Below, one piece after another: positions 50 through 59,051 of a stretch of 64,000 nt of DNA (its first letter is position 1; the number at the start of each line of letters is the position of its first letter). Location: the NCBI GenBank assembly GCA_963781585.1, contig CAWAGQ010000006.1:128001-192000 (forward strand). The letters run 5' to 3'. This DNA comes from an uncultured Gemmatimonadaceae bacterium. Lineage in GTDB: Bacteria; Gemmatimonadota; Gemmatimonadetes; Gemmatimonadales; Gemmatimonadaceae. The translations under genes were made by a program, and so were the position numbers. A model generated the notes under the pieces. That model was not told the origin of the DNA. It was given only the letters and a program-made list of their open reading frames with translations, and searched no databases.

Positions 50-2912
50 GCCGTATCACGCCATCATGCGGTACGACCATCGTCCCATCGGAACATTCCA
101 GCGCGTGATCCCACGCCGAGCGTGTGAGATCCACCGGGCGCACCGTGACGCCGTGCCGTTTCGCGTCCTCGACCAGCGTGCCCACCGAATAGAACCCCAT
201 GGGTTGCGCGTTGAGGATGGCGGCGGTGAACTCGGGCGCGTAGTAGTGCCGCAGGTACGCCGAGGCGTAGACGATGAGCGCGAAGCTGGCGGCGTGCGAT
301 TCGGGGAAGCCGTAGTCGGCGAAGGCATTGATCTGGTTGTAAATACGCCGGGCGACGTCTTCGGCGATGCCGTTGCGCTGCATCCCGGTGATGAGCTTTT
401 CGCAGATCGCCGCCATCCGTTCGCGCGACCGTTTGTGGCCCATCGCCCGGCGCAGGATGTCGGCCTCGCCCGGCGTGAATCCCGCGGCCACGATCGCCAC
501 CTGCATGCCCTGCTCCTGAAAGAGCGGGATGCCTAACGTGCGCTTGAGCACCGGCTCGAGCGATGGGTGCGGGTACTCGATCTGCTCGGTGCCCATCCGC
601 CGGCGCAGATACGGATTCACCATCTCGCCCTGGATGGGCCCGGGGCGGATGATCGCGACCTCCACCACCACGTCGTAAAACGACCGCGGCTTGAGGCGGG
701 GGAGCGTATTCATCTGCGCCCGGCTCTCCACCTGGAACACGCCGATCGTGTCGGCGGCACAGAGGTCGTCGTACACTGCCTGATCGGTCATGTCGAGGGC
801 CCCCAGGTCGATCGTCACGCCGCGGGTGGCCCGGATGTACTTGAGACAATCCTGGAGCACGGTGAGCATGCCGAGACCCAGCAGATCGATCTTCACCAGG
901 CCGGCGGCATCGAGATCGTCGCGCTCCCACTGGATCACCGTGCGTCCCGGCATCGACGCCGGCTCGATAGGCACCACGGTGCGCAGCGGTTCCTTCGTGA
1001 GCACGAACCCGCCCACGTGGATCGATCGATGACGCGGCGCCTGGTGCAGTCCCTCGACGATATCCGGCAGCACCCGCACCCGGCGGTCGGCGGGATCGAG
1101 ACCGGCCTGCGCCAGAATGGAGGAGGGATCGGGCGCCACGGAGGAGCGGTTCTCGCCGGCGGCATTCTGATCTTCGATTTCTGGGCTCTGGCCTTTCGCC
1201 TCGGGCCTTTCACCTCTGGCCTTTGGCCTCTGACCTGTCGTACTCCGCCGCTCCGATTCCTTCATCGCCCGCGCCCGCGCCGCCGCCTCCGTGCCGGGCA
1301 CCATGTCCTGGCCAAGCCGCTCGGCGAGCAGCTTCTCGGCGTTCCATTCTTCGGGGCGTTTGCGCGGATCGTCGGGAATGCCGGGACGATCGCTTTGCGG
1401 ATCGAGGTCGTAGTGTCGGCCGAGCATCGTCTCGGCGGTGGTCCCGGCACGCAACGCGTCGGCGGTGGCCCGCGCCGAAAAGCGATCGGAGAGCGCGCTC
1501 AATACGTCGGCCTGTTCCACCGAGAACCCCAGCACCCGCGCCGTGTCGCGCACCGCCGACCGCCCGCGATAGGTGATGTGCTCGCAGACCATCGCGGCGT
1601 GCTCACGCCCGTACCGTTCGTAGACGTACTGGAGCACGGTCTCGCGATCGCGATGGGCGAAATCGAGGTCGATGTCGGGGGCTTCGGGGCGCTCCTCGCT
1701 CAGAAAGCGCTCGAAGAGCAGCTCCATGCGGATCGGATCGATGGCGGTGATGCCCAGGCAGTAGCAGACCACCGAATTCGCGGCCGAGCCGCGTCCCTGG
1801 CAGAGTACCCCGGCGCGCCGGGCGAAGCGGACGATGTCCCAGACGATGAGGAAGTATCCGGCGAGGCCGAGCCGGCGGATGAGGTCCAGCTCGTGCGCGA
1901 TCTGCGCGCGGTGGCGCGCGGGAAGCGTCTCGAAGATGGCGATGCGATCGGGGGGAGCGGCAGACGGTGGCGGCACTCCGCGTGCGCGCATCGCGGCGCT
2001 CGCGCCGATGCGTTCGCACGCCCCCTGTTCCACCAGCCGCGCCAGGTACTCGTCGGCCGAGACGCCGGGAGGAAGCGGGAATTCCGGCAGCGTGGGTTTC
2101 AGGTCCGCGAGCCGGAAGCCGCACCGCTCGGCAATGCCTGACGTGGCGCGGAGCCCCGTCTCATCCTGTTGCCAGCGGCGCCGCATCTGGGCCGCGCTCT
2201 TCAGATACCACTCGCCGTTGGGGCGGAGCCGGGTGCCCATCTCGTCCAGCCGGCGCTGGTGCCTGATGGCGCCGAGCACGTCGTGCACGATCCGCTCCGT
2301 CGGCTGGGCGTAGTGCACGTCGTTGGTCACGACCCACGGCACCCCCAGCGACCTGGCGAGGGGAATGAGATGCCTGACGAGGGAGCGTTCCTCGGGCAGA
2401 TGGTGATCCCAGCATTCGATGGCCAGGCGCCCCTCGAAGAGATCCAGCAGAGCCGCCGCGGCCTCGCACGCCCCGTCGAGATCTCCGGCGGCGATGCGCG
2501 ATGGTACCCACCCACGCGGACATCCGGTGAGGGCGAAGATGCCGCGCGCATGCCGCGCCAGCGTGTCGAGCGTGACCGTGGGTTCGCCGCGGGGCGTGTC
2601 CATGCGGGCACGGGTGATGAGGGTCGCGATGTTGCCGTATCCCTCGCGCGTCTCGGCGAGCAGGACGAGATGGCCAGGGGTGTCGTCCACCGAAACCGTG
2701 AGCTCGACGCCGATGATCCCGCCGACGCCAAGTTCCCTCGCCGCCTGCGCAAACCGGACCGCGCCGCCCAGGTCGTCGTGGTCGGTGAGCGCGAGCGACG
2801 ACATGCCGAGCGCCGCCGCCCGCGCCAGGAGCGCCTCCGGTTCGGACGCACCGTCGAGGAGGGAGAAGACGGAGTGACAGTGGAGTTCGACGTAATCAGA
2901 AGAACCGGTCAT
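1..2912 (-). CDS. dnaE2: Error-prone DNA polymerase III alpha subunit DnaE2/ImuC (3' end runs off the window)
   Basis: Hand translation from ATG 2912, absent from the ORF track because there is no stop in the window: [17 protein letters not shown] (PHP domain), [55 protein letters not shown]. Lies downstream of imuA-imuB. Confidence 0.95.
1166..1235. repeat. Degenerate 7-bp tandem array inside the dnaE2 insertion
   Basis: tctgggc tctggcc tttcgcc tcgggcc tttcacc tctggcc tttggcc tctgacc; translates as [19 protein letters not shown]. Confidence 0.8.
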
Positions 2913-2961
2913 AGCGCCGAGCGCTCATGGCTCACAGCCAGAAGACGAGGAGTTGCGGCGA

Positions 2962-5073
2962 TCAGTCGTACCAGCCCTGCACATACCAGCCGCCTTCCGC
3001 GGCTGCGCCATCGCGAAAGAGCACGAGATCGCCTTCTCCCTCTGCTTCCTCGCACCGCCAGTAATCGCGCGCATATCCGTCCTTCCACCAATCGCCCGAC
3101 AGGCGCTCGGGTCCGACGGTGCGCTCGATGCGCACCCGTCGACCGCGCCACCAGAGCACGCGCGGTGCACCGTCTTCACACTCGACCTCCACGGACTCGG
3201 GAGGCTCGAGTTGGCGGAGTGCCCGGGCGAGGTGTGGCAGGGAGCCGTCACCGGGCGACGGGTTTGCGCTTCGCCCCACGCCGTCGATCTCGAGGATCCG
3301 CCGGTGTCGCAACACGCCGGGTTTCCGGTTGTCTCTCGTACCACGGTGCGGTTCCCGGTGTGGCCGGTCTCTCCCTGGCATCGGGGGCTCATCGTCCGGT
3401 GTTTCGATTCCCACCCATGCGCCAGCGCGTTCCGGCCGGTGCTCATCGCGCACCACGGGGAAGACCACCGCGTCGGAGCCGAGTTCCGCGCGCAGGCGCG
3501 CGAAGGCGGCATCGGCGGCCGCCGGGTCGCGCCATGAGGGGTCGAGCAGGTCGCCCTGCTCGCCGGTGAGTGGTGCGGTGGCGGAGATGGCCACGGTCAC
3601 GCCGCACACCGGTGCCGAGAGCGTCCAGCGGTCGAGGAGGGCGCGGCATCGTTCGAGCAGCGGCACCGGCCGTGCGAGCGGGCGGGCGAGGCGCACTTCG
3701 CGCGTGATCGTATGCGCCGGTGAACCGCCGGGGAGGGCGCTGCGCGGGTCGTCGAGCGTGAGGGTGATCGCCACCGTTGCCGCAGCCCGTCCGTCGGCAA
3801 CGAGCTCACGCACCAGCCGGTCGAGGGCGGCCCGGACCAGGAAGAGCACGGGTTGCATCGCGGTCACGCTCGGGGCGAGATCGGCCGACGCGGACCGTGG
3901 CGCGTCGGCGCGGGCCAGCAGCGGACGGCGGTGGTCCTCGCCGTGTGACAGGCGCCAGGCGGCGAGTCCGGTGTTTCCCCATCGCCGTTCGACGTCCTCC
4001 GCGGAAAAGGCGGCGAACGCGCCGGCGGTAGGGATGCCTAACGCCTTGAGCGTGTCTCGCAGCTCCTCGTCCATGGGGAGGAGTCCGAGCGGGACGTTGG
4101 CCAGGTAGGCGGCGCACTGGCCGGGGGGCACGATGACGATCGGGTCGGGCGTCCGGGATCGGGAATCCGGGGGGAGGCCGGAAGCGCGGGCCGGGGGTCG
4201 GAGGGGAGGCGGAGGCGTTTCCGGTGCGTGCGGGGCGTTGGCGGCTTCCGGTCTCCGTCCCGCCAGTTCCCAGGTGCCGGCGCGTGCGGCGACACACGAG
4301 TCAGCGATGGCCACGCGGGCGCGTGGGTGCCAGCGGCGCGCGCGATGCAGCAGGGCGGCTGCCAGCGCGCGTTCACCGCCTAACGCTTCGAGTCCGGCGG
4401 CGCCGACCCACCAGAGTCCCGGCGCACCGGCGACGGGAGTGACCTGGGGGCTGGCGGCGAGGAAGGCGGCGGTGGCGCGCCGGACTTCGTCGGCGATGGC
4501 GGTGGCATCCCACGGGAGCACGGTCAGGGTGGCGCATCGCGCCCGTGCTTCGGTGGTTGTCATGCCGGCGCGGACCCGGTTGTGCGCGGCGGCGGTGGTG
4601 ACTGTACAGAGCCGTGGCCCCTCGGCGAGGGCGATGGGGAGATCATCCCAGTGCGGCGATGGAACGATGGGAGACGCGTTGGAATGGTGACGCGCCGCGG
4701 TGATGGAAGCGGTATGCTGAATAGCGGGGGGGGGGCCCAGTGGCCGTCCGTTACCGCCCGGTTTCCCCAGCGAGGAGGAATCCGTCGCGCCCGACGACCG
4801 GCTCGGCACATCGGCGCTTGCGGGGGAGCGAGAAGCCGGTGTCCCGGGATCGCAGTCCGACATCGGACTGGCCGACGGGTTCGCTTCTTCCTGCCGTTTC
4901 CGGCTGCTGGACGGCGCCTTCCGGTCGTCTGTCTCCAGCTCGAGCGCCAACTGGCCGCCTGGCGCCAGGAACGCCGGGAGCGGCGCGTTCCCCTCGGCGA
5001 TTGCGCGGTGCCACACCGCGCCGATCGGGAACCTCGGAATACGCACACAGGCGATGCGTCCTGTCGATCGCAC
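2962..5073 (-). CDS. imuB: ImuB, catalytically inactive Y-family polymerase-like protein
   Basis: IACVRIPRFP N-terminus, ..RVRAGMT..ARARC, C-terminal GPERLSGDWW..RDYWR..GWYD. GTG start at 5073 is preceded by GGAGG; the ORF track extends to 5205. Confidence 0.85.
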   Translation of the reverse strand: MRSTGRIACVRIPRFPIGAVWHRAIAEGNAPLPAFLAPGGQLALELETDDRKAPSSSRKRQEEANPSASPMSDCDPGTPASRSPASADVPSRSSGATDSSSLGKPGGNGRPLGPPPAIQHTASITAARHHSNASPIVPSPHWDDLPIALAEGPRLCTVTTAAAHNRVRAGMTTTEARARCATLTVLPWDATAIADEVRRATAAFLAASPQVTPVAGAPGLWWVGAAGLEALGGERALAAALLHRARRWHPRARVAIADSCVAARAGTWELAGRRPEAANAPHAPETPPPPLRPPARASGLPPDSRSRTPDPIVIVPPGQCAAYLANVPLGLLPMDEELRDTLKALGIPTAGAFAAFSAEDVERRWGNTGLAAWRLSHGEDHRRPLLARADAPRSASADLAPSVTAMQPVLFLVRAALDRLVRELVADGRAAATVAITLTLDDPRSALPGGSPAHTITREVRLARPLARPVPLLERCRALLDRWTLSAPVCGVTVAISATAPLTGEQGDLLDPSWRDPAAADAAFARLRAELGSDAVVFPVVRDEHRPERAGAWVGIETPDDEPPMPGRDRPHREPHRGTRDNRKPGVLRHRRILEIDGVGRSANPSPGDGSLPHLARALRQLEPPESVEVECEDGAPRVLWWRGRRVRIERTVGPERLSGDWWKDGYARDYWRCEEAEGEGDLVLFRDGAAAEGGWYVQGWYD

Positions 5074-5788
5074 AACTGACCTCCACCGGGTGATGCCGTC
5101 CGCCCTTTTCCACCGCGACGCACAGCATGCTCGCCGAGCGCCGGGACACCGAGACCGACCGGAGGGGAGGAGCGTGGCCACGACCGTCCGCCCTCCGACT
5201 TCCACCCGGTCGTCGCCTGCTCATTCGTAATCGCACCGCGCTTCCCACTCCTCCTCCGGCGCGGGTAGCCGGGTCCGCCCGCTCGTCACCCACCACCACC
5301 AGCGCGGCGTCGTGATCGCGTGCCAGCCGCGTGAGGCGAACGGCAACCGGCCGTGAGAGCGGGGGCCCGCCGTCGAGCACCACCAGGCCGAACGCCCCGC
5401 TTCGCAACAGGACGTCCGCGCACCAGGCACTCCGGCTGGCATCCGGCGGCCGGATGACCCACAGATGTTTCTCCGCCTCTCCCCGCTTCCGCTTCCCGGT
5501 TCTCCGCTCCTCGTTGAAGGCGGTCCAGTCGCGCGGCGCCAGTGTCCGCGTTGCGTCGACATAGGCTACCCAGCGCCGGGCCGCGATGGCCCCGGCCACG
5601 ATCTGCCTGACGAGGGTCGTCTTCCCGCTTCCCCGTGCGCCGATGATCTCGGTGAGCCGGCCGTACGGGACGCCGCCGTCCGACAGCGCTCGATCGAGCG
5701 CCGCGATGCCGGTGGGTATCGCCGCTCCGCCGGCGCGCGGCGGGGCGAGGAAGACAGCGAGCTGCTGACGAAGCGCGGCGAGAGACAT
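4751..5788 (-). CDS. imuA: ImuA, RecA-like protein
   Basis: IPTGIAALDRAL..GG(V)P.GRLTEI.GARGSGKTT Walker A, LLRSGAFGLVVLD; position in the imu cassette. Confidence 0.88.
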   Translation of the reverse strand: MSLAALRQQLAVFLAPPRAGGAAIPTGIAALDRALSDGGVPYGRLTEIIGARGSGKTTLVRQIVAGAIAARRWVAYVDATRTLAPRDWTAFNEERRTGKRKRGEAEKHLWVIRPPDASRSAWCADVLLRSGAFGLVVLDGGPPLSRPVAVRLTRLARDHDAALVVVGDERADPATRAGGGVGSAVRLRMSRRRPGGSRRADGRGHAPPLRSVSVSRRSASMLCVAVEKGGRHHPVEVSCAIDRTHRLCAYSEVPDRRGVAPRNRRGERAAPGVPGARRPVGARAGDRRPEGAVQQPETAGRSEPVGQSDVGLRSRDTGFSLPRKRRCAEPVVGRDGFLLAGETGR

Positions 5789-5800
5789 GGGTTGTTGGGA

Positions 5801-5867: not shown

Positions 5868-5881
5868 TTCGACGCGAACGC

Positions 5882-7102
5882 CTAACGCGTGACATCGGCC
5901 GGCCCGAAATGGAACTCGCCCTGTACCCCGGCGTCCGGCGCCGGGGGCGTGTGCGGCGCCCCAACGCGCTCACCGACTCCAGCCGCCCGCCCGCCGGGCA
6001 CGATCGCCGTGGCCCGAAATGCCAGCGGCTCCTCCGCACCCTCCTTCTCCACACCGTAGCGGATGCCAGCCTCCCGGCACTGCCGGCGCAGAAAGCGCCG
6101 CAGCCCATCCCGATACCGGTCGCTCATCTGATGGCTCTCGGCGTACGCGGCCCGATACCGGGCGGCCAGATCGGGAAACTCCGCTTCGATGAACGGGAGA
6201 TAGCGATGCCGCGCCGTGGCCTGCAGCCGGAGCGCGCAGGCGCTGACGTGGGAGGCGCCCGCGCCGGCCACGCGCCTGACGAGCTCGCGCAACATCCCGG
6301 GCCGGTCGGTCAGGCCAGGCAGCACCGGCATGATGTTCACCCCCGTGTCGATGCCGGCGGCCGACAGGCGCGCCACGGCCCGGAGCCGCGCTTCCGGCGT
6401 CGGCGCCCGCGGTTCGATGCGGCGGGCCAGCGCGCGATCGAGCGTGATCAGCGACACGTGCACGGTGAGCGTCGACCGCGACATGAGCGCCGTCAGGATG
6501 TCGATGTCGCGCGTAATGAGCGGACTCTTGGTGACGATGCCGACCGAGAGACCACGCTCCGCCGCCAGAACCTCGAGGATCGCGCGAGTGACGCGAAAGG
6601 TCCGTTCCGCCGGTTGATAAGGATCGGTCGCCGTGCCGATCGCGATTCGCTCCCCGGTGGTCAATCGTGTGAGACGATCGGCGAACGCGCGCCGACTCCG
6701 CGAATGGCGCGCAGCATCCCGGGCGCGCAACTGCGCGCGCAACACCTCGGGTGCGTTCCGCTTGACGAAGATCCGCCGCTCGAATGCCAGCCAGGGCGGC
6801 AACTCGGTGAGTTCCTCGGCCACCGCCGCGGCCGGCGCAATCGCCACCGTGCGCTCGGCGGCATACCGGTGCGCATACCGCGCATAACAGTAGGCGCACC
6901 CGAACGCGCAGCCCACGTACGGGTTGATCGACCAGAATCCCATTCCGGTCGATTCCGGCGCATTGAGCACCCCCTTCGCCAATGTGTCGTAGTAGCGAAT
7001 GTCCTTGCGAGTGCCGATCAGACCGGGGACCGGACGATGCCGGCCGGCATCGTCAACCTGGCTTATGGGAAAGAGGGAAGGGTTCACCAAGTCGTAGCTC
7101 AT
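5882..7102 (-). CDS. Radical SAM protein, spore photoproduct lyase-like (Rv2578c-type)
   Basis: SINPYVGCAFGCAYCYAR (CxxxCxxC), GTATDPYQPAE, TKS, IEPRAPTP..RL. Confidence 0.9.
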   Translation of the reverse strand: MSYDLVNPSLFPISQVDDAGRHRPVPGLIGTRKDIRYYDTLAKGVLNAPESTGMGFWSINPYVGCAFGCAYCYARYAHRYAAERTVAIAPAAAVAEELTELPPWLAFERRIFVKRNAPEVLRAQLRARDAARHSRSRRAFADRLTRLTTGERIAIGTATDPYQPAERTFRVTRAILEVLAAERGLSVGIVTKSPLITRDIDILTALMSRSTLTVHVSLITLDRALARRIEPRAPTPEARLRAVARLSAAGIDTGVNIMPVLPGLTDRPGMLRELVRRVAGAGASHVSACALRLQATARHRYLPFIEAEFPDLAARYRAAYAESHQMSDRYRDGLRRFLRRQCREAGIRYGVEKEGAEEPLAFRATAIVPGGRAAGVGERVGAPHTPPAPDAGVQGEFHFGPADVTR

Positions 7103-7177
7103 AGTTCATTGCTCATAGGCGGAGACCGGAGGTCGGAGACTCGCATCCGCACTCAGCCAACCGGAGATTCCGACTCA

Positions 7178-7307: not shown

Positions 7308-8684
7308 ATGAGCTATGCTTCCGGCCCCACCGATGCCCGCACGCTGGCGCGCGCCATTCGACAACGCCGCGTGTCACCGGTCGAGATTGTCGACGCGGTG
7401 CTGGAACGCATCGCGGAGCTCAATCCGATCCTGAACGCGTATCTCTCGGTGTTCGAGGAGCCTGCACGGGAGGCCGCGAAACGCGCTGAACGCCGGACCG
7501 CCCGGAAAGGAGAGCTGGGTTCCCTCCACGGTGTTCCGGTCTCGCTCAAGGATCTGATTCTCACGACCGAAGCGCCGACCACCGCCGGGTCCCTGATCTT
7601 CGGCGATGGTCTGGTGGCCGAGCGCGACGCGCCGGTGGTGCGACGCCTGCGTCGCGCCGGGGCAATCATCGTCGGCAAGACGAATCTCCACGAGGTCGCG
7701 TTAGGCGTCACCAGCGACAACGAACACTTCGGCCCGGTGCGGAATCCCTGGGACCTCACGCGAGTGGCGGGCGGCTCGTCAGGCGGTTCGGCGGCGGCGG
7801 TGGCGGCCGGGCTCGGCCCGCTGTCGGTTGGCAGCGATACCCGCGGCTCGATCCGTATTCCGGCTGCCTGCTGCGGCGTGACCGGGCTCAAGCCCACCCG
7901 CGGCCGGGTGTCGACCGACGATGTGGTGCCACTCAGTCTCACCCTCGACCATGCGGGTCCGATCGCGCGAAGCGCCGAGGACTGCGCCCTGCTGCTGGAT
8001 GCGATGCTGGGCCGCCACGCCGGTGGCACAACCGCACGCGGGAGTGTGCGGGGAATGCGGATCGGCATCTCCGAATACCACCTGCGTGATCTGGATACCG
8101 CCGTACAGACGCTGGTGGAGGGGGCGCTCACCCGTCTGCGACGTCTCGGCGGCCGGCTGCAGGCGGTCGACGTCTCCGGCCTGGATCCCGTCCAGGAAGC
8201 ATCCGTCGTGATCACGGCATCCGAGGCGCTGGCGTACCACGATCCGATGTTGCGCGCGCGTCCGGAGGGGTACGGTCCGCTGGTGCGAAAGCGGCTCGAG
8301 GGGGGATCCCGCTGGAGTGCGGTCGACTATCTGCGCGCGATGACGGTGCGTGAAGCGGCCTGTTCCGTGTTCGCGCGCATCTTCGCGCGGGTCGATTTTC
8401 TGGTCGGTGCCACGATTCCGGCCCCGCCACCCCACATCGGTGAGCACGTCGCCCACATCAACGGGCGCGAGGCTCACCTGGTCGACAGCTTCACGCGACT
8501 CAACTCGCCGCAGAACATGGCGGGCGTGCCGGCGCTCGCGCTTCCCTGCGGCTTCTCGGCGGACGGACTTCCGGTGGGCTTTCAGCTCATCGCGGCGCGC
8601 GGGCGGGACGAGCGCCTGCTCCGGCTCGGGGCGGCGTACCAGCGCGAAACCGACTGGCACACGCGCCTGCCGCCGTCGGCCTGA
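7308..8684 (+). CDS. Amidase signature family protein (GatA/AtzE-like)
   Basis: LHGVPVSLKD, GKTNLHE, GGSSGGSAAAVAAG, GSDTRGSIRIPA. Confidence 0.92.
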   Translation: MSYASGPTDARTLARAIRQRRVSPVEIVDAVLERIAELNPILNAYLSVFEEPAREAAKRAERRTARKGELGSLHGVPVSLKDLILTTEAPTTAGSLIFGDGLVAERDAPVVRRLRRAGAIIVGKTNLHEVALGVTSDNEHFGPVRNPWDLTRVAGGSSGGSAAAVAAGLGPLSVGSDTRGSIRIPAACCGVTGLKPTRGRVSTDDVVPLSLTLDHAGPIARSAEDCALLLDAMLGRHAGGTTARGSVRGMRIGISEYHLRDLDTAVQTLVEGALTRLRRLGGRLQAVDVSGLDPVQEASVVITASEALAYHDPMLRARPEGYGPLVRKRLEGGSRWSAVDYLRAMTVREAACSVFARIFARVDFLVGATIPAPPPHIGEHVAHINGREAHLVDSFTRLNSPQNMAGVPALALPCGFSADGLPVGFQLIAARGRDERLLRLGAAYQRETDWHTRLPPSA

Positions 8685-8799
8685 CGGCGCAAGCGGACGG
8701 GTCTCTCCCGGCGTATCTTGGGACGACCGCGGTGCCGGGAGGGGCCGCGGCTCGACTGCCTAACGCTGTAGTTGCTGCCACGCCTTGCCGGAATCCGCG

Positions 8800-9957: not shown

Positions 9958-10779
9958 CTAGCGCTTCCGGATGTCGACGCTTCCGTTCACCGTGTGAAGC
10001 TGCAGCGTGCGTCCCCCTTTGCCGATGGTCGCGCGGATGTGCCGCGGATTGATCCGGCCATTGAGGGTCAGCGGGAAATCGGATCCGATCGACCCGTTCA
10101 CCGTGGTCAGGTCGACGTCGGCGTCCACGCCGTCAGGTACGTACAGGGTGATCGACCCGTTCACGGTGCTGAACCGCTGGTCCCGGTCTCCGAGCGTGCC
10201 CATGCGCACCTCGACGTCGCCATTCACCGTCCCCGCGGTGACCGGGCCGCCTGACGACGTGGCCGTCACCCGGCCGTTCACGGTGTGCGCGTCGACGTCC
10301 GAAGTCGCGCCGTCGATATCCAGCGCGCCATTGACCGAGCTCACGACGAGCTTCACCCCTTCCGGCAGGTGGACGGTGAACTCGACCGACACGTCGTCGT
10401 CACGGTAGCGCCTGTTGTTTCCGTGCACGTCGTACCCGTCCTCGTCGCAGTTCGTGTTGTCGTACCAGATCGCGCAGACGATGACGTCGCCGGCGGAACC
10501 CACCTGGCGCTCTTCGATCCGCACGTCAGGCGAATTGCTGCGGCGCCGCGTGTCGGATGACCGGCGAGAGTCGTCGACCCACTTCACGCCTGTCACCTCG
10601 GCGCGGTTTCCCGATGCGCGGTCCACCTGGATCGGGCCATTGAGGTTGCGCACGTAGAGCCGCCGTCCCGCCGGGATGACGCCGGTCCAGTGGAACGTGG
10701 AGTCGGTGGAGCGTTCCTGAGCGCCGAGGACCGGCGCGGCAGCGAGGAGCGCGGCGACGAGGAGGGAAGAAGATCTCAC
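9958..10779 (-). CDS. DUF4097 beta-strand repeat (adhesin-like) protein
   Basis: Signal peptide, repeated TVNG motifs. Confidence 0.85.
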   Translation of the reverse strand: MRSSSLLVAALLAAAPVLGAQERSTDSTFHWTGVIPAGRRLYVRNLNGPIQVDRASGNRAEVTGVKWVDDSRRSSDTRRRSNSPDVRIEERQVGSAGDVIVCAIWYDNTNCDEDGYDVHGNNRRYRDDDVSVEFTVHLPEGVKLVVSSVNGALDIDGATSDVDAHTVNGRVTATSSGGPVTAGTVNGDVEVRMGTLGDRDQRFSTVNGSITLYVPDGVDADVDLTTVNGSIGSDFPLTLNGRINPRHIRATIGKGGRTLQLHTVNGSVDIRKR

Positions 10780-11861: not shown

Positions 11862-11874
11862 CGTCGGGAATTCG

Positions 11875-32821: not shown

Positions 32822-32924
32822 CCGGTCGTCCGGCACCTCGAATCTGCGTCCCGATCCACCCCCGGGTCGGGGCCCGGCGTTCGTACTGCAACTCGTCAGG
32901 CTGCGCCGCTCGGCCGTCCTCCGA

Positions 32925-37077: not shown

Positions 37078-37078
37078 A

Positions 37079-46334: not shown

Positions 46335-46667
46335 ATGCCACCACGAGAAGCGATTCCCCCCGGCACCCTGGACATGCTCATCCTGCGCACGCTGGCGCGG
46401 CACGGCGAGCTGCACGGGTTCCAGATCGCCGAGATGATCCAGCGGACGTCGGCGAGCGTGCTGCAGGTGGAGGAGGGATCGCTGTACCCGGCGCTCCAGC
46501 GAATGCTCGTGAAGGGATGGCTCGTTGGCGAGTGGAGGCGCACGCCCGAGAACCGTCGCGCGCGGTACTACGAGGTCACCGCGGCGGGGACGCGGCAACT
46601 GGAGCGTGAGGTCGCATCGTACCGGCGTGTGACTGCCGCGATCGCACGCATCCTGCAGCCCGCCTGA
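46335..46667 (+). CDS. PadR family regulator (ADOP-associated type)
   Basis: GTLDMLIL, HGF.I, EEGSLYPAL, ENRRARYY. Confidence 0.93.
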   Translation: MPPREAIPPGTLDMLILRTLARHGELHGFQIAEMIQRTSASVLQVEEGSLYPALQRMLVKGWLVGEWRRTPENRRARYYEVTAAGTRQLEREVASYRRVTAAIARILQPA

Positions 46668-46688
46668 CGGGAAGGGAGAGGAAGCGAC

Positions 46689-49361
46689 GTGACAAGCACC
46701 CTGGGCGATTATCTGCGACGCTTGCGGTTGCTCCTTGGTCGCGATCGTGCGTTGGCGGAGCTGGAGGACGAGATGCGTGTGCATCTCGAGTACCGCGCCG
46801 ACGCGTTTCGCGAGCGGGGCGTGGACGGGCAGGATGCGGCCCTCGCCGCACAAAAGCGCTTCGGCAACCGTACCGTGATCCAGGAGGAGAGCCGCGACGC
46901 GTGGGGGATGCACCTTCCCGAGCAACTGGCCGCGGATCTGCGCCACGCTGTCCGACGCCTCGCACAGCGGCCGGGGTTCGCGCTCGCCGTGATCGGCGTC
47001 CTCGCGCTCGGCATCGGGGCCACCACGGCGATGTTCAGCGCGGTCGACGCCGCAATGCTGCGTCCCCTGCCGTTTCCGCGGCCGGGTGAGCTGGTAACGC
47101 TACCGCACGTGCAGGTGCCGTTTGATCCCGGTACCGACCGGTTTCCGCCGCCTCCGGTACACATCCTCGACGTGCGCGATGCCGCGGGGTTTCGTGACAT
47201 CTTCGCTCATGTTGCCGCATATGCGGTGGGAGGACTGAACCTCACCGATCCCGACCATCCGTCGCGCGTACAGGTGGGAGTGGTAACCGACGACTTCTTC
47301 GCGACGATGGGAGTACCCCCGCTCCTGGGCCGAGGGTTTTCTCACGCCGAGGGGATCCCGAACGGGCCGCTGGCCACCGTGCTCTCGTTTGGGCTCTGGC
47401 AGCGCCAGTTCGGCGGCCGCGCGATCGAGGGTCTGACCGCGCAGCTCAACGGAAAATCGTACGCCGTAGTGGGCGTGATGCCGGAAGGGTTTGCCTTTCC
47501 GGCGGACTGCGATCTCTGGGTTCCGATGACGGTGCCGACGACGTTCGCGACGTTCGAGGCGTTCCGGGGGTTCCTCCCGTCGACGACGATCGCGCGGGTC
47601 GCGCGCGGCCTGACCCGGCCGCAGGCAGACGCGCGTATGCTCGCGCGTTGGCAGCAGTCGCTGGCCGGCGCGACCAGTGAGACGGATCTTCGGGAGTATG
47701 TGGATGAAATGCGCCGGACCGGGGCGGCCCTGCCGTTGCAGCAGACCCTCGTGGGCGATCGGCGCACGGCGTTGCTGGTGTTGCTTGGCGCCACTGCGGT
47801 CCTGCTCCTGATCGCCTGCGCGAACGTAACGAACCTGCTGCTCTCGCATGCGGCAACACGCCGGCGCGAGATCGCAGTGCGCCAGGTGCTGGGGGCGACG
47901 CCGGGCCGGATCGTGCGCCAGCTGCTCGCCGAGAGCGTGACCCTGTCGGTGGCGGCGGCGGCGTTAGGAATCCTGCTGGCCCCTTTGGCCCTGCGAACGA
48001 TGCGGGTCCTCATGCCGGCGCAGCTGGCCGGGGTGGCGACGGCGCATGTGGACGTCCGGGTGCTGACCTTCGCGACCGCGCTCGCGCTGGTGACCGGCGT
48101 CGGGTTCGGCCTCTGGCCGGCTCTGGGCTCCGGCCGGGAGGACCCTGGCGCGACGATCAAGACCGGCGGTGAGCATGGCGCTACACCGCTCGCCGCCGGG
48201 CGCGTGCTCGTGGGCAGCGAAATCGCCCTCACCCTCATGTTGCTGGTGGGGGCCGGATTAATGCTCCGCAGCTTCGAGCATCTGATGGGACTCGACAAGG
48301 GGATGAATCCGGCCCACGTGGCCACGCTGGAGATGTCGATATCCGATCGTGCACAGCCGTGGAGCGAGCGGCTGCAGAAGCTCGACGCCATCATGGAACG
48401 GCTGCGTGCGTTGCCGGGAATCGACGCCGCGGGCATGGTGAACGATCTGCCGCTGCGGGGGGGCGGCGGGATCGCGCTGCGCGTCGCCGAACCGAAGCCG
48501 GTCGGCAAGACCGATTTCGGCGGTGCCCGCCAGCTCGCTGCCGACGCGGGCTACTTTGCCGCGCTCGGCATTTCACTGCTCGCGGGGCGCCTGTTCACCG
48601 ACGTGGACGACTCTCTGGCCCCACCGGTGGCCGTGATCAGCCACTCCATGGCGAAACTGTTCTGGGGCGACGCGGATCCGATCGGCCGCCAGTTCAAGCT
48701 TTCGACGGCATCCGACGCGACAGGGATTACCGTGATCGGTGTCGTGGCCGACGTGCGTGAGGGCTCGCTGGATCGCGACCCCGGCGCCCAGATGTACACG
48801 CCGATCGCGACCTGGGCGCCGCAGAACGTTGCGCTCGTTGCCCGGGGGACGGTGCCATCGCGGGTGCTTCTTTCCCGGCTGACCGAGGCAGTGCGTACGG
48901 TGGATCCGGGCCAGGCGGTCTTCAATGTGCGGATGATGGACGACGTGATCGGCGCATCGGTGGCTTCGCGGCGGGCGAACACGCTGATGATCACGGCGTT
49001 CGCGGTGCTGGCGCTGCTGCTCGCCTCGTTGGGGGTCTATGCGGTGGTCATGTACGGCGTGGCACAGCGTGGCCGCGAGTTCGGAATCCGGGCCGCCCTT
49101 GGCGCGACGAGATCAGGGCTGATGGCCATGGTCGCGCGAGAGATGGCCTCGGTGGCGGTGGTTGGCGTGGCTGTCGGGCTGGGTGGGGCCTGGGCGCTGT
49201 CGCGTGTGCTGTCGTCGCTCGTGTATGGGGTCGATCTGCACGATGCGGCCATCTTCGTGACGGTACCGCTTGCGATCCTGGTGCCGGTGGCGATTGCGAC
49301 CGTGGTTCCGGCGCGGAGGGCGACGGCGGTGAGCCCTTCGGAGGTTCTGCGGTCCGACTGA
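46689..49361 (+). CDS. ADOP family duplicated MacB/FtsX-like permease
   Basis: permease prefix (A..RFG), ALGIGATTAMFS, LLIACANV, RRREIAVR, QR.REFGIRAALGA, PARRA. Confidence 0.93.
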   Translation: MTSTLGDYLRRLRLLLGRDRALAELEDEMRVHLEYRADAFRERGVDGQDAALAAQKRFGNRTVIQEESRDAWGMHLPEQLAADLRHAVRRLAQRPGFALAVIGVLALGIGATTAMFSAVDAAMLRPLPFPRPGELVTLPHVQVPFDPGTDRFPPPPVHILDVRDAAGFRDIFAHVAAYAVGGLNLTDPDHPSRVQVGVVTDDFFATMGVPPLLGRGFSHAEGIPNGPLATVLSFGLWQRQFGGRAIEGLTAQLNGKSYAVVGVMPEGFAFPADCDLWVPMTVPTTFATFEAFRGFLPSTTIARVARGLTRPQADARMLARWQQSLAGATSETDLREYVDEMRRTGAALPLQQTLVGDRRTALLVLLGATAVLLLIACANVTNLLLSHAATRRREIAVRQVLGATPGRIVRQLLAESVTLSVAAAALGILLAPLALRTMRVLMPAQLAGVATAHVDVRVLTFATALALVTGVGFGLWPALGSGREDPGATIKTGGEHGATPLAAGRVLVGSEIALTLMLLVGAGLMLRSFEHLMGLDKGMNPAHVATLEMSISDRAQPWSERLQKLDAIMERLRALPGIDAAGMVNDLPLRGGGGIALRVAEPKPVGKTDFGGARQLAADAGYFAALGISLLAGRLFTDVDDSLAPPVAVISHSMAKLFWGDADPIGRQFKLSTASDATGITVIGVVADVREGSLDRDPGAQMYTPIATWAPQNVALVARGTVPSRVLLSRLTEAVRTVDPGQAVFNVRMMDDVIGASVASRRANTLMITAFAVLALLLASLGVYAVVMYGVAQRGREFGIRAALGATRSGLMAMVAREMASVAVVGVAVGLGGAWALSRVLSSLVYGVDLHDAAIFVTVPLAILVPVAIATVVPARRATAVSPSEVLRSD

Positions 49362-49965: not shown

Positions 49966-51249
49966 TCATCTCCCCACGTCTGCCCGCAGCGCCGCAAAGA
50001 GTCGCGCCAGGTACCGGTTCTCTTCCGCCTCCACGCGCCCGCTGAAATCGCTGAACGCCGAAGCGCCCAAACGCCCGATCCAGCGCATGATCGCGCTCTC
50101 GTTGACGATCAGGTGCAGGGTGCGGAAGCTGAGTGTCTGCGGCGGGATGTCGTCGCGCACCCCCAGGCGGAGTTCGAGGCCGCGGCCCTGAAACGGGCGA
50201 CGCAGCGGTGAGCGAATGAGCTTGTCGACGGCCAGCGGGAAGTGCCACGCCGGTTCGCGGCGGAATCGGAACATCCACGCGCGCAGGTGCTCGCCGCGCT
50301 CGATGGTGAAGTCGCCCACGAGGTCGGTGTAGCCGATGCGGTAGAAGCTGTGCTTGAACGAGATGTCGCTCTCGACGAGCAGGGAATCGGGAAGCGAGCG
50401 CGCAGGGTCAGCGAGGGCGACGAGAGTGCCGGCGCGGGCGCGGAGCCTGACGACCACGTGGCCGTCGCGGCCGGCGAGCTCGAAGTAGTGCGCTCCCTGG
50501 TGGTCGGCGACGGTGAACCGGTAGACGGTCGGGACGGCATACTTGTCGAGATAGGCGGCGAACGCGGGCAGCGTGCCGCGGATACTGTCGGGGCGGATGG
50601 CTATGCCTAACGTGAGCACGGTGGAACCGTCGTCCGCCACGACCGTGCGGAGGGAGTCGATCGCGAACAGGTGCGAGAGGTATCGCGCGGTGCTCGGGAA
50701 CGCGGTCACGGAGGCGGCCTGCGCCTGGTCGCTGGACAGTCCCGAGGCGCCGGTGAACGTGGCGACGATCGCGGCCGCGATGCCGTCGGGGGTCACGTGG
50801 CCGATGGCATGGTCGACAGTCGTTTCCCACTCGTAGTCGTTGTGGCCGAGCGATCGGAGCCGGAGGAAGTGCCGCTGCTCGCTCAGCTCCGTCGGGTAGG
50901 GGGCGTTGGTGCCGTTGGTGAAGCGGTATCGGCCGTTGGCGCGTGTGCCGTGCAGGTACATCACGCGCGAGCTGTCGCCGTTCGAGACGATGGGCCAGAT
51001 GGCGGTGTCGGCGTAGAGGTGCGAGGGTATGAGCGCTTCGCGCGCCATCTCCATTCGGGCGCTATCGAAATGCGGTTCGCGCTCGGCGTCGGTGAAGCGG
51101 AACTGGAATGCGGCGAAGGTGTCGTCGGCGTTGGCGCGCGCCGATGCAGGGTTCGCGCCGAACGCATCGATTGTATCGCGGCAGGCCGACGCGGCGGCGA
51201 GCGCGATGAGGAACGCGAGTGGGATGTAGCGGATGGGCCTGCGGCGCAA
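49966..51249 (-). CDS. Hypothetical lipoprotein
   Basis: Signal peptide ending ASAC; 427 aa; family not recognised. Confidence 0.7.
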   Translation of the reverse strand: MRRRPIRYIPLAFLIALAAASACRDTIDAFGANPASARANADDTFAAFQFRFTDAEREPHFDSARMEMAREALIPSHLYADTAIWPIVSNGDSSRVMYLHGTRANGRYRFTNGTNAPYPTELSEQRHFLRLRSLGHNDYEWETTVDHAIGHVTPDGIAAAIVATFTGASGLSSDQAQAASVTAFPSTARYLSHLFAIDSLRTVVADDGSTVLTLGIAIRPDSIRGTLPAFAAYLDKYAVPTVYRFTVADHQGAHYFELAGRDGHVVVRLRARAGTLVALADPARSLPDSLLVESDISFKHSFYRIGYTDLVGDFTIERGEHLRAWMFRFRREPAWHFPLAVDKLIRSPLRRPFQGRGLELRLGVRDDIPPQTLSFRTLHLIVNESAIMRWIGRLGASAFSDFSGRVEAEENRYLARLFAALRADVGR

Positions 51250-51367
51250 AGTGCCGGGGAATAGAGGGTTAGGCCGGGTTCCGAGGGGTTGCCGGGTGAG
51301 TCCGGGGGCGGGTATCTTAGCAACCCGGCCGATGCGGATGATAGTTTGTCGCGCGGGCGGGGAGTGA

Positions 51368-51536: not shown

Positions 51537-51631
51537 TAGCGAGCGGCGGGTCTTCCGACCCGCCGCTTTTCGCTCCCGCCCCTTGGGCTCGAAGGCCTGC
51601 TGGCGGCGGCTGATCCAACGCACCGTTCCCG

Positions 51632-52030
51632 TCAGGCCTGCTCCGGGAGACGTTCTCGAAGAAACGTTGCGACAACGTTGTCGTCGGCGCGATTGGTGGC
51701 GACGGCCATTGTAAGCGCATAGAGATCCTTGGGCGCGGTGTGAATGGGCGCGCCGTTGATGGACAAGAACACAAGCGCACAGGCAAGGCCTGTGCGCTTG
51801 TTCCCATCGACGAATCCCTGAGTCCGTGCGAAACCCACGAGGTACGCGGCCGCCAGAGCTGCAAGATCAGCGGATGTGTCGTAGGCCCATCGCTGCCTCG
51901 GGCGTGCAAGTGCGGAGAGCACCACGTTCTGATCGAGCACGCCATGCGAACCGCCGAAGCGCTCTATCTGCTGCGCGTGGATGGCCAGGAGTGTCGGCGC
52001 GGTGATCCACAGGGGTTCTGCGATCGGCAC
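51632..52030 (-). CDS. doc: Doc/Fic family toxin (His->Gln variant)
   Basis: IH..QI..FGG..G, SALARP, QGFVDGNKRTG, FL.ING. Confidence 0.88.
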   Translation of the reverse strand: MPIAEPLWITAPTLLAIHAQQIERFGGSHGVLDQNVVLSALARPRQRWAYDTSADLAALAAAYLVGFARTQGFVDGNKRTGLACALVFLSINGAPIHTAPKDLYALTMAVATNRADDNVVATFLRERLPEQA

Positions 52031-52367: not shown

Positions 52368-52451
52368 GACGGCCCGAGCCCTCCTGCGCAACGCAACAGG
52401 GCCTCAGCGAGTGACGAACGCGCGCATGCCTCCGCCTAACCCGCTTGACTC

Positions 52452-53324: not shown

Positions 53325-54263
53325 ATGACCGGTATCGTCCGCACCTCACTCCTGCTCGCCGTTCTCACACCGATTGGTTTGCCTCGCGCACTTCGTGCGC
53401 AAACGCCCTACCCGACGCGCTGCGGGACGGGGATCCCGCGCAGCGAGCAATCGGGCTACGTCCCACTTCCCAGAGGCGACGTCTTCTGTCCGCTCGTCGC
53501 CGACCCGAAAGCCGCGACCTCGTTCGCGAGCTATCTGCATGAGCACTCCGACGCCACCACGCCCGACACGTCGATCAACATCGCGTCGGTCGGCATCGGC
53601 GACGCGTTCGGGCTGGGACGGTGGAACGGTGCGCGGCCGGGTGACGGGGTCGAGATCGCTCTCGCGGGCAGCGTGTTCGCCCAGTTCGACCTGAGCAGCG
53701 CGTCGTACGACCTGCTCAACGCCGACTACGTGATCGGGGTGCCGATCACGCTCCGGAGCGGCTGGTTCTCCACGCGCATTCGGGTCTATCACCAGAGCTC
53801 GCACCTCGGCGACGAGTATCTCCTCCGGGAACCGGCGAATCGACAGAATCGGGTGAACCTCTCCTTCGAATCGCTGGAATGGATCCTGTCGGCGGATGCC
53901 GCGGCACTGCGGCTGTACGGCGGAGGCGAGTACCTGTTCCACCGGTTCCCCAAGGATCTGGAATCCTACGTGGCGCACGGCGGCGCGGAACTGCGGCCGC
54001 AATTCCGCATCATCCCACTCGGTTCGTTAGGCGGATTCCGCCTGGTGGCGGCCACCGACCTCAAGGCGTCGCAGGAACACGACTGGAAACCGAGCGTGAG
54101 TGCCCGGGCGGGGCTGGAGTACGACCGGGCCGGACGCGCCGCGACCCCGGCCCGAAGGTGGGGCCTGTTCTTCGAGTACTACACGGGCCCGTCGCCGTAC
54201 GGGCAGTTCTACCGCACGAACGTCCACCACATGGGGGTGGGGATCCACTTCGGGCCGTCGTGA
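53325..54263 (+). CDS. DUF1207 family exported beta-barrel-like protein
   Basis: PLVADP, FAQFDL..S.DLLNADY, YHQSSHLGDE, G.SPYGQF. Confidence 0.8.
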   Translation: MTGIVRTSLLLAVLTPIGLPRALRAQTPYPTRCGTGIPRSEQSGYVPLPRGDVFCPLVADPKAATSFASYLHEHSDATTPDTSINIASVGIGDAFGLGRWNGARPGDGVEIALAGSVFAQFDLSSASYDLLNADYVIGVPITLRSGWFSTRIRVYHQSSHLGDEYLLREPANRQNRVNLSFESLEWILSADAAALRLYGGGEYLFHRFPKDLESYVAHGGAELRPQFRIIPLGSLGGFRLVAATDLKASQEHDWKPSVSARAGLEYDRAGRAATPARRWGLFFEYYTGPSPYGQFYRTNVHHMGVGIHFGPS

Positions 54264-57455: not shown

Positions 57456-57695
57456 GCGTCCGCCACGTGAAGGACACCAGTATATGTCGCAGGAGCAGGC
57501 CCGTTCTTACGCGCCGTGGGCGTCGAGTGAGGGAGCCCCGGACAAGATGTAGGGAGAAACCACGAGAGCAGCTTCTCTCCGGGTCTCACGCCTCACGGAT
57601 TCTCACGCCCGGGCGGAGCGGGGTGCGCGCGGAGCCCCACCGATTTGGGAAGGCGAATGGCGCGACATACCTTTAGGGCAGAGCGGCGAGGAGGT

Positions 57696-59051
57696 ATGTC
57701 GATGAGGGGCCGTCTCAGGTGGGTGCTCGTTCTCGCGGCAACCGCGGCCGTCACCAGTAGCGCGGTCGGGCAGCCCGACTCGGCGGCCCGAGGGGAAGCC
57801 GCGCCCGCAACCCAGCATCAGATGCCAGGGCATGATCGGATCCTGGTGATGCATCTCGCGGACGATATCTCACCCGTCACCGCCCAAGCACTGCTCGCCG
57901 CGATCGAGCGGGCCGAGCGGGACGGGTATCGGGCCCTCGTGATCGAGATCGATACGCCGGGCGGTCTCGAGAGCAGCATGCGCACGATGGTCAAGGGGAT
58001 CCTCGTGTCGACGGTGCCGATCATCGCCTGGGTGGCGCCGAGCGGCGCGCGGGCGGCCTCGGCCGGGGTGTTCGTGACGATGGCTGCGGACGTGGCGGCC
58101 ATGTCGCCCGGCACCAACATCGGCGCCGCGACTCCGGTGAACATGCAGGGACCCATGGATTCCACGATGGCGCGCAAGGTGACGGCCGACGCCGCAGCGT
58201 TCGCACGCACCATCGCCGGGCAGCGGGGCCGGAACGCGGCGTGGGCCGAGCGCGCGGTGCGCGAGGCGATCGCCGCCAGCGAGACCGAGGCGGTGGATCT
58301 GCACGTCGTGGATTTCGTGGCCGCGACGCTCCCCGAGCTGCTGGAAAAGGCCGACGGACGGAAGTGGCGGCGCGGGGGTGAGGAACACGTTCTCTCGGTC
58401 AAGGGCTTGCCGGTTGATCGCATTCAGCCGGGGTTTCGCGACCGCCTGCTTGCCATTCTCACCGACCCGAGCCTCGCCTACATCCTCCTCTTGTTAGGCT
58501 TCTACGGTCTGCTGTTCGAGCTGCAGAATCCCGGGGCGATTCTCCCCGGCGTGGTAGGCGTGGTGTGTCTCGTGCTCGCGCTGTTCGCGCTCTCGACGCT
58601 CCCGGTGAATTACGCCGGGGTAGCGCTGATCGTGCTCGCGGTCGGGTTCTTCATCGCCGAGATCAAGATCGTGAGCCACGGGGTGCTGGCCGTGGCCGGG
58701 GTGATCTCGATGTTGCTGGGATCCCTGATGCTGTTTCCGGGTGACGAGATGCGCCTGGCGGGGACGCTGATCGGCGGAGCGACGCTGGTTACCGCGGCGT
58801 TCTTCCTCTTTGTGGTCGGCGCCGGGCTCCAAGCGCAGAGACGCCGGGTGCAGACGGGAGCGCCCGCCCTGATCGGGGCGCGGGCCTCGGTCATATCCCG
58901 CCTCGCGCCGGAGGGAATGGTGCGGGTGGAAGGAGAATTGTGGAGGGCGGTGTCGGACACCGCGGTGGAACCAGGGAGCGAAGTGGAAATCACCGGCGTG
59001 GACCAGCTCATGCTGCGCGTCCGCGCGTCAGGCAAGGAGGCCGGAACATGA
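57696..59051 (+). CDS. nfeD: NfeD membrane-bound serine protease (ClpP class)
   Basis: [32 protein letters not shown]-fold. Confidence 0.93.

Follow-up and report, generated by a model that had tools for sequence, protein, structure and literature searches.

CGTYAGGC, a hyperabundant non-palindromic word in the DNA of a Gemmatimonadaceae lineage

An overabundant octamer in the window

The 64-kb stretch of contig CAWAGQ010000006.1 analysed here (positions 128,001 to 192,000, hereafter the window) has a base composition of about 68% G+C and encodes, among other things, dnaE2, an imuB-like gene, an amidase, a SNF2 helicase next to a Type IIG restriction/methylase-like enzyme, and TonB-dependent receptors. 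Scattered through its genes and spacers is a short word, CGTYAGGC, which differs from its own reverse complement and is hence non-palindromic, and which is the subject of this study. The window comes from the Gemmatimonadota, an abundant, poorly cultured phylum of soil and water. Hyperabundant genomic words are rare, and the known ones, namely the DNA uptake sequences (DUS) and uptake signal sequences (USS), Chi, the FtsK-orienting polar sequences (KOPS) and the highly iterated palindrome HIP1, pointed to processes of DNA traffic or chromosome handling.

An initial annotation had listed 17 copies of the heptamer GTTAGGC/GCCTAAC, and all of their positions and strands (8 +, 9 −) were reproduced. 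The expectation from dinucleotide shuffles is 2.25 copies, with a maximum of 7, and 0 of 100 shuffles held at least 17. Fourteen of these sites extend to the octamer CGTTAGGC (6 +, 8 −), as had been claimed. For this octamer, dinucleotide shuffles give 0.95 (maximum 4, with 14 in 0 of 100), a first-order Markov model 0.96 and a third-order model 0.87. The excess also survives a shuffle in which synonymous codons are permuted within each gene, such that protein sequence and codon usage are preserved. Under this null we found 1.69 ± 0.82 copies with a maximum of 5, and 0 of 500 shuffles reached the observed 14.

A k-mer scan of the window uncovered a second enriched family, CGTCAGGC, which is present in 28 copies (10 +, 18 −) versus 6.1 expected from a first-order Markov model and 7.68 from the codon shuffle (0 of 500 reach 28). 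Its extension CTCGTCAGGC occurs 12 times versus 1.29 in the codon shuffle (0 of 500 reach 12). Together, the T form CGTTAGGC and the C form CGTCAGGC make up 42 CGTYAGGC sites per 64 kb, or one per 1.5 kb; the T form contributes one third of them, the C form being twice as frequent. Relative to the shuffles, the T form is over-represented about 8- to 15-fold and the C form about 4-fold. For CGTGAGGC, with 13 copies versus 8.2 in the codon shuffle (16 of 500 reach 13), an excess is not clear, and CGTAAGGC has zero copies in the window.

Preferences outside the octamer were pooled from 24 T-form and 36 C-form sites of the window and its closest relative (locus L001, introduced below). At position −2, C is found at 15/24 T-form and 24/36 C-form sites, T at −1 is found at 10/24 and 22/36, and a purine at +1 at 18/24 and 28/36, respectively. 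The full word is CGTYAGGC with weaker flanks, the consensus being CTCGTYAGGCR. The signal of the initial annotation thus stands as far as the T form is concerned, but its extent has to be widened by the C form, which had been missed, and by the flanks CT...R.

The possibility that the sites are copies of a longer repeat or of a mobile element was ruled out, because the 25-nt flanks of the 17 heptamer sites are alike in nothing but the octamer. Nor did an Rfam scan of the window place any family over any site.

The word in coding sequence

Reading frames were assigned using 48 open reading frames (ORFs), which were called heuristically from stop to stop (at least 60 codons, GC3 > 0.72, GC1 > GC2, overlaps resolved by length) and named from Pfam. 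They make up 91% of the window, a few of them overlap, and their start codons are undefined. Nine of the 14 T-form sites read NCG-TTA-GGC in sense, in keeping with the initial annotation, which had given this as the main reading in genes. The carriers are dnaE2 (ACG-TTA-GGC, Thr-Leu-Gly; 531..538, −), the imuB-like ORF, which has it twice (GCG-TTA-GGC; 4036..4043 and 4378..4385, both −), the amidase (GCG-TTA-GGC; 7699..7706, +), the SNF2 helicase (ACG-TTA-GGC; 15930..15937, −), the DUF4956 ORF (GCG-TTA-GGC; 20471..20478, +), the MntR-like repressor (TCG-TTA-GGC; 27465..27472, +), ORF 49966-51405 (ACG-TTA-GGC; 50605..50612, −) and the DUF1207 ORF (TCG-TTA-GGC; 54025..54032, +).

The other five T-form sites bear out what had been said of further frames, stop codons and spacers. 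Two of them supply stop codons: 5880..5887 (−) is the TAG stop (CGT-TAG-GC) of the radical-SAM ORF 5882-7105, and the complement of 11873..11880 (+), GCC-TAA-CG, is the stop of the anti-sigma-like ORF 11875-12747 (−), which overlaps the stop-to-stop ORF 10794-11951, where the site is antisense. One site (8758..8765, −) is intergenic, between the amidase and the pterin-4a-carbinolamine dehydratase genes, and two are antisense, at 28654..28661 (+) in an SPFH ORF on the minus strand, read G-CCT-AAC-G, and at 40070..40077 (−) in a TonB-dependent receptor ORF on the plus strand, read NGC-CTA-ACG. The three sites that match the heptamer only are 51268..51274 (+), where G precedes, 52434..52440 (−), which is intergenic, and 58493..58499 (+), read TTG-TTA-GGC in the NfeD ORF. 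Three near variants noticed earlier are real as well: CGTTAGGG in the DUF5916 ORF (TCG-TTA-GGG; 35045..35052, +), CGTTAGGA in the MacB/FtsX ORF (GCG-TTA-GGA; 47962..47969, +) and CGTTAGGT in a TonB-dependent receptor ORF (GCG-TTA-GGT; 63939..63946, +).

The window has 18 in-frame TTA codons, 12 of them within CGTTAGG and 9 within full CGTTAGGC, so that the earlier observation of TTA-Leu being concentrated in a single context holds true. Moreover, TTA is used for 9/23 of the Leu codons in NCG-Leu-GGC, versus 18/1991 of Leu codons overall, which agrees with the proposal that the word forces this rare codon into genes. Other rare codons are recruited too, since 6/102 AGG, 7/93 CCT and 6/76 TCA codons of the window lie within the word.

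For each stop-free frame, we counted the peptide positions in the window and L001 that permit the word, and compared their occupancy with the product of the relative codon frequencies. The frame NCG-TTA-GGC is occupied at 13/77 positions (0.16 expected), NGC-CTA-ACG at 2/43 (0.10) and G-CCT-AAC-G at 5/17 (0.43). Among the C-form frames, CGT-CAG-GCN is occupied at 6/15 positions (1.36 expected), NCG-TCA-GGC at 7/58 (0.78), C-GTC-AGG-C at 8/64 (0.49) and G-CCT-GAC-G at 7/37 (0.90). Two frames display no excess, namely NGC-CTG-ACG (5/43 versus 3.56) and C-GTT-AGG-C (0/64 versus 0.10); the former consists of common codons and the latter of two rare ones, such that the test is powerless in both. 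At Val-Arg positions, where both forms are synonymous, the C form is found 8 times and the T form 0 times. At a Leu position, it is the T form that is available.

The C-form sites of the window are distributed over a similar range of contexts. In the first 9 kb, dnaE2 carries CGTCAGGC at 2136..2143 (−), read ACG-TCA-GGC, and CTCGTCAGGC at 2372..2379 (−), read CTC-GTC-AGG-CAT with the rare AGG codon. A further CTCGTCAGGC at 5605..5612 (−) is intergenic by our heuristic gene calls and syntenic with an ORF in L001, and the radical-SAM ORF (6274..6281, −) and the amidase ORF (7777..7784, +) each have CTCGTCAGGC in sense. The amidase stop codon is supplied by CGTCAGGC at 8679..8686 (−), the complement of which reads GCC-TGA-CG, and the PadR stop codon is formed in the same manner at 46662..46669 (−). 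In total, the word supplies the stop codon (TAG, TAA or TGA) of 4 of the 48 ORFs.

Further sense copies of CTCGTCAGGC are located in ORF 12849-13871 (13713..13720, +), the SNF2 helicase (14461..14468 and 15456..15463, both −), the dicarboxylate symporter (23000..23007, −), the doubtful ORF 32667-33287 (32894..32901, +), DUF5916 (34590..34597, +) and ORF 60251-62506 (60764..60771, −), and there is one antisense copy in the aminotransferase (38490..38497, −). Sense copies of CGTCAGGC are found in the DUF4097 ORF (10249..10256, −), the SNF2 helicase (15649..15656, −), ORF 49966-51405 (50445..50452, −), the overlap of the NfeD and SPFH ORFs (59026..59033, +) and a TonB-dependent receptor (63005..63012, +). 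Antisense copies lie in the DUF4097 ORF (10524..10531, +), the Type IIG-like methylase (17287..17294, +), the NUDIX ORF (24363..24370, −), two TonB-dependent receptor ORFs (40773..40780 and 62751..62758, both −) and ORF 60251-62506 (60806..60813, +). The remaining two are an intergenic copy (51630..51637, +) and one located where ORFs 60251-62506 and 62288-64000 overlap (62445..62452, −).

The excess in most stop-free frames of both strands, at stop codons and in spacers indicates that the signal acts on DNA and not on translation, as the initial annotation had surmised. Where the protein allows it, ordinary codons are replaced by TTA, AGG, CCT or TCA to spell the word.

Arrangement along the window

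The spacing of the 42 sites is random-like, the coefficient of variation of the gaps being 0.92 versus 0.96 under random placement, and the largest gap, 5.9 kb, is unremarkable. Successive 8-kb bins hold 10, 10, 3, 3, 3, 3, 4 and 6 sites. Regular spacing and clustering were both considered and set aside, since the gap variation is near random and our own chi-square test on the bins is not significant (p ~0.08); periods of 10-90 kb, as reported for HIP1, are beyond the reach of a 64-kb window. Close inverted pairs are represented by a single case (60764/60806), which lies inside ORF 60251-62506.

With both forms combined, 16 sites are on the plus and 26 on the minus strand, and GC skew has the same sign over most of the window. 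The absence of strand polarisation that had been noted for the heptamer extends to the octamers (6+/8− and 10+/18− for the T and C forms, respectively), the orientation of which tracks gene direction. Relative to genes, the C form is oriented sense at 17 sites and antisense at 7, with 4 outside ORFs. Since sense orientation offers three stop-free frames and antisense two, much of this preference is expected.

Occurrence among relatives

Using the DnaE2 fragment of the window as a query, we collected 80 loci from contigs representing one genome per species. The statistics thus come from the 64-kb window, 20 kb of one relative and one locus for each other genome. The window's organism was placed in the Gemmatimonadaceae, and its closest relative is L001 (contig DATIGO010000422.1), the amino-acid identity in DnaE2 being 81% overall and rising to 90% within the C-terminal third. 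In the 20.3 kb of this locus, CGTTAGGC is present 10 times (0.24 expected) and CGTCAGGC 8 times (2.15 expected). Codon shuffling gave 3.89 copies of the former (0 of 500 reach 10) and 2.76 of the latter (1 of 500 reaches 8). These 18 CGTYAGGC sites mean that densities across the two species are one per 1.1-1.5 kb.

No such enrichment was found in the other loci. The 20 other Gemmatimonadota-type loci (277 kb) hold CGTTAGGC 2 times (4.2 expected) and CGTCAGGC 15 times (25.9 expected), and in the 59 outgroup loci (935 kb) the counts are 2 (14.7 expected) and 63 (76.9 expected). Likewise, 18/113 TTA trinucleotides of the window and 10/34 of L001 lie within CGTTAGG, as compared to 0 in the other Gemmatimonadota-type loci except L016 (3/39) and L019 (1/20). 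The counts in L016 (two octamers and four heptamers in 12 kb) and in L017 (two octamers) are within chance among 80 loci. Most of the top enriched 8-mers inspected in six other Gemmatimonadota loci belonged to tandem arrays of heptamers or octamers instead of being dispersed.

A tree of the DnaE2 C-terminal part was built from 24 rows chosen by hand, i.e., the 21 Gemmatimonadota-type loci, three outgroups and the window, minus L019, the match of which fell short of 300 residues. In this tree the window and L001 form a sister pair, with support of 100/99, and are nested among lineages without the word. Among the loci sampled, enrichment in CGTYAGGC is thus confined to one genus-level branch of the Gemmatimonadaceae, comprising the window's organism and the metagenome-assembled genome behind L001, which agrees with the lineage specificity proposed at the outset.

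Gain and loss of sites

In the window and L001, and in these two alone, the Thr-Leu-Gly stretch of DnaE2 that carries the word at 531 is encoded as ACG-TTA-GGC. The 67 other pattern-matched loci all lack TTA at this Leu codon; of the 13 Gemmatimonadota-type loci among the pattern matches, 8 read exactly ACG-CTC-GGC and 12 have CTC for Leu, a clade with Met at this position falling outside the Thr-Leu-Gly match. Going from CTC to TTA needs two substitutions. Since the relatives mostly have ACG-CTC-GGC and never TTA, the word is derived. A second case is CTC-GTC-AGG-CAY in DnaE2, which is common to the window and L001 and is seen nowhere else; aligned relatives that have the Arg encode it by CGN, and their next residue is never His. 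Taken together with the behaviour of the word in coding sequence, we regard its nature as a derived, lineage-specific signal at the level of DNA as established with high confidence.

The first 9.9 kb of the window are syntenic with L001, and the pairwise alignment covers 9.4 kb at 72.7% identity. Ten window sites fall in ungapped columns, and five of them are identical in L001, versus 1131/8833 (12.8%) of all 8-mers, which amounts to conservation at about four times background (p ~0.005 by our own binomial estimate). The five are the T-form sites in dnaE2 (531; 9842 in L001), imuB (4036; 5990) and the amidase gene (7699; 2404), and the C-form sites at 2372 (7989 in L001) and 5605 (4688). Two further sites lie in gapped columns, namely 8679 and the intergenic site 8758, which aligns with the L001 site at 1267 across a one-column gap. 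Each species also has private sites. A GCG-TTA-GGC in DnaE2 of L001 corresponds to GCG-CTC-GGC in the window, and the imuB-like site at 4378 (GCG-TTA-GGC) corresponds to GCG-TCC-GGC in L001. Sites thus persist above background, yet are gained and lost between the two species.

We considered whether the T form might be a deamination product of the C form. At the conserved Leu positions this is ruled out, because the ancestral codon, CTC, is two changes away from TTA, such that deamination of CGTCAGGC cannot yield these sites. At single sites such as imuB 4378, where L001 has TCC, a deamination origin may apply.

Discussion

CGTYAGGC looks like a genome-wide recognition signal, and we infer that some sequence-specific reader favours DNA carrying it. 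The word is young, as two sister species have it and their next relatives do not, and the push towards it prevails over codon usage. The word accounts for most TTA codons in this lineage. In conserved genes, its before and after states are legible at the level of single codons, and the reader could be found by phyletic correlation across Gemmatimonadaceae genomes. In addition, the word could be used as a marker for binning and for the detection of foreign DNA in these genomes. Hyperabundant, lineage-specific oligomers are known as a class, whereas this particular one appears to be new, as do its phylum and its asymmetric form with a Y degeneracy; CGTTAGGC in either strand was not found in the literature searched.

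The initial annotation had likened the signal to HIP1 and to uptake sequences, and this likeness holds for the pattern only. DUS and USS number hundreds to thousands per genome and promote the binding of DNA, its uptake and transformation, the sequence-specific receptor in Neisseria being ComP. Inverted pairs near gene ends are typical of neisserial DUS. With CGTYAGGC they are absent, and the only pair among 42 sites is intragenic. A further difference from DUS and USS, besides the phylum, is the 8-bp core with its Y degeneracy. What the word has in common with them is its occurrence about once per kb on both strands, in genes and spacers, and a strict core with weaker flanks. Its narrow distribution at the genus level (with one locus per genome sampled) recalls the DUS dialects described in PMC3630211, each of which is specific to a narrow lineage. 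It also favours one orientation within reading frames, and such a preference is described for DUS and USS in PMC2346458.

The mechanism that we consider the most likely, albeit tentatively and by analogy, is a molecular drive of the uptake-sequence type. In this scenario, the competence machinery would prefer fragments of own-species DNA when CGTYAGGC is present, and recombination would spread word-creating alleles wherever coding constraints tolerate them. The word would thereby become a tag of self, like the neisserial DUS or the USS of Pasteurellaceae. We know of no uptake signals outside the Neisseriaceae and Pasteurellaceae, although no search was aimed at them; CGTYAGGC would be the first if it is one, and species-biased transformation in soil bacteria would be implied.

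Several observations weigh against such a drive. The lack of inverted pairs near gene ends is unlike what is familiar from neisserial DUS, and the strict core with its single Y looks as much like a restriction-modification site as like an uptake signal. Furthermore, one-mismatch variants of CGTTAGGC at seven positions (position 4 excluded) are at expectation, with 29 versus about 30 by our own sum, though 64 kb is too short to detect the weak near-miss enrichment that is expected from a graded uptake bias. Conservation of sites above background is equally expected from selection for function in place. Competence, pilin or receptor genes were not seen among the 48 ORFs of the window, and no report of natural transformation or of an uptake sequence in Gemmatimonadota was found in the literature searched, where ComE C homologues of soil bacteria are mentioned in general terms only (PMC7305173).

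A possible, if rather unlikely, alternative to uptake is that the word is the site of an asymmetric DNA methyltransferase or restriction-modification enzyme, and that it is created or kept by coupled repair or by selection. The strict, asymmetric 8-bp core, which is degenerate at a single Y and has an adenine in either strand, would suit such an enzyme, and so would the number of one-mismatch variants at expectation. A candidate reader is encoded in the window itself, namely the Type IIG restriction/methylase-like ORF 16472-19708 (1079 codons; PADLOC 9.4e-45; Pfam Eco57I, N6_Mtase and MmeI_Mtase), which adjoins a SNF2 helicase resembling DpdE/DrmD. This defence-type pair spans 14082-19708 (−) and carries 5 CGTYAGGC sites in about 5.6 kb, such that, as far as the word is concerned, the composition of the island is not foreign. 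Beyond the Type IIG-like enzyme and the SNF2 helicase, searches with Pfam, PADLOC and NCBIfam gave no other candidate readers in the window. Nothing ties this enzyme to the word, and its methylase domains are of the adenine-N6 type, so that a route via deamination and very-short-patch repair is inapplicable; such a route would also founder on the conserved Leu sites with their ancestral CTC. Nor do we know of any repair system that writes asymmetric 8-mers. A precedent for the link is an abundant alternate HIP that is accompanied by a methyltransferase specific for it, as related in PMC4390886, and it is there that Elhai proposed a methyltransferase-linked repair origin of HIP sequences.

The parallel with HIP1 and the alternate HIPs of cyanobacteria (GCGATCGC) goes further, as these too are hyperabundant 8-mers in and between ORFs with sites conserved between genomes above background. 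They differ from CGTYAGGC in being palindromic, and HIP1 is in 15- to 300-fold excess, as compared to the roughly 8- to 15-fold and 4-fold found here. The adenine methylase ORF of the window would be a candidate counterpart to the methyltransferase link if it reads the word.

The conservation of HIP1 sites was read by Xu et al. as selection (PMC5861425), and the same argument may be applied to the five of ten conserved sites here. The word would then be the binding site of a lineage-specific nucleoid or chromosome-organising protein, each site being kept by selection for its function in place, much like the role in chromosome structure that has been suggested for HIP1. We think this unlikely. 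The word does occur within genes, at their ends and in spacers alike, as would suit such a protein, but the regular spacing that might accompany it is not seen within 64 kb, selection on each site would have to exceed the cost of rare codons at 13/77 Ala/Pro/Ser/Thr-Leu-Gly sites, and no candidate protein could be named from the window.

That the word is a recombination hotspot, read by the RecBCD or AddAB of this clade, seems to us improbable. Chi sites are non-palindromic, over-represented words of 5-8 nt, and CGTYAGGC, which is also clade-specific, resembles the 8-mer GCTGGTGG of E. coli in this; the T form alone, with 14 copies in 64 kb or about one per 4.6 kb, has a similar density. The frequent sense-strand sites would moreover give a leading-strand skew if genes are co-oriented with replication. 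In the window, though, orientation is mixed and has no polarity beyond that of the genes, although GC skew is mostly of one sign. The word is missing from the nearest other relatives, a turnover faster than we would expect of Chi, and the forcing of TTA, AGG and CCT implies a push beyond the weak per-site selection that is usually assumed for Chi. For KOPS, the strong strand polarity towards dif differs from the mixed strand split of both forms within a window of constant GC-skew sign.

Similarly improbable, in our estimate, is a new sequence-specific drive that does without DNA uptake. Here, a reader of asymmetric sites coupled to repair or recombination would convert near-cognate sites into its own recognition site, a candidate being an adenine methylase/nuclease of the defence type, for example the Type IIG-like enzyme together with its SNF2 partner. 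Such a drive would parallel the repair model of HIP sequences, with a word that is not palindromic. If true, a defence or epigenetic system would be reshaping codon usage, and even protein sequence, across the genome of its host.

Finally, a codon-context or tRNA effect on TTA-GGC after NCG, or an artefact of composition or repeats, can hardly be credited, even though 9/14 octamers are in the single sense frame NCG-TTA-GGC: the antisense frames, all three sense frames of the C form, four stop codons and the spacers are enriched as well, the excess survives dinucleotide and codon shuffles, and the sites have neither extended flank similarity nor an Rfam family.

Other observations on the window and related loci

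The larger intergenic spacers mostly hold short tandem heptamer arrays, which in the window are of the type (AGGCCAN)n and are found at 5800-5863, 19824-19865, 24149-24219, 29057-29084 and 37078-37151. Inside the stop-to-stop ORF of dnaE2 they occur at 13-49 and 1186-1240, a region that aligns poorly among relatives. Further arrays in the window are CTGAACC x3.9 at 27642-27668 and the octamer CTCCGGCC x5.1 at 46205-46244. Similar arrays with units of their own (GGTGCTG, CGTTCAC, AGGGCGG, GATGGTA and the octamer GTGGGACA) are present in other Gemmatimonadota loci, as at 7122-7270 in L001, at 8549-8590 in L011, at 5396-5420, 5649-5670 and 6787-6808 in L013, at 10205-10270 and 11438-11500 in L021, and at 1445-1475 and 3685-3725 in L016. 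The window and L001 have the dispersed word in common, but not the heptamer unit.

Two loci of the DnaE2 collection have peculiarities of their own. L017 (JBGAHS010000004.1, Obscuribacteraceae, 46% GC; 22.8 kb) contains the palindromes CGGTACCG and CGGATCCG 12 and 10 times (0.13 and 0.39 expected), which may be something akin to HIP in a relative of cyanobacteria that is not photosynthetic. L006 (CALQGY020000070.1) is labelled Candidatus Kuenenia stuttgartiensis, and its DnaE2 falls inside the Gemmatimonadaceae beside L007 with support of 99/97, so it is probably a mis-binned contig.

Within the window, an SPFH/Band_7 gene appears to be split into the overlapping ORFs 27979-28461 and 28358-28891 (−), which match profile positions 88-173 and 2-89, respectively; a frameshift, a pseudogene or an error in sequencing could account for this. 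A Uma2-family putative endonuclease is encoded at 52449-53147 (+; Pfam 2.9e-31) and matches the PADLOC candidate defence family PDC-S03. The only Rfam matches are two tRNAs and a thiamine pyrophosphate (TPP) riboswitch. The tRNAs are tRNA-Ala(CGC) at 49582-49654 (+) and tRNA-Gln(CTG) at 51368-51441 (+), the latter overlapping the end of the called ORF 49966-51405. The TPP riboswitch (58.5 bits) at 62168-62278 (+) immediately precedes the ORF of a TonB-dependent receptor, the start of which is near 62288, and because it overlaps the 5′ part of ORF 60251-62506 (−), the true start of that ORF must be further in.

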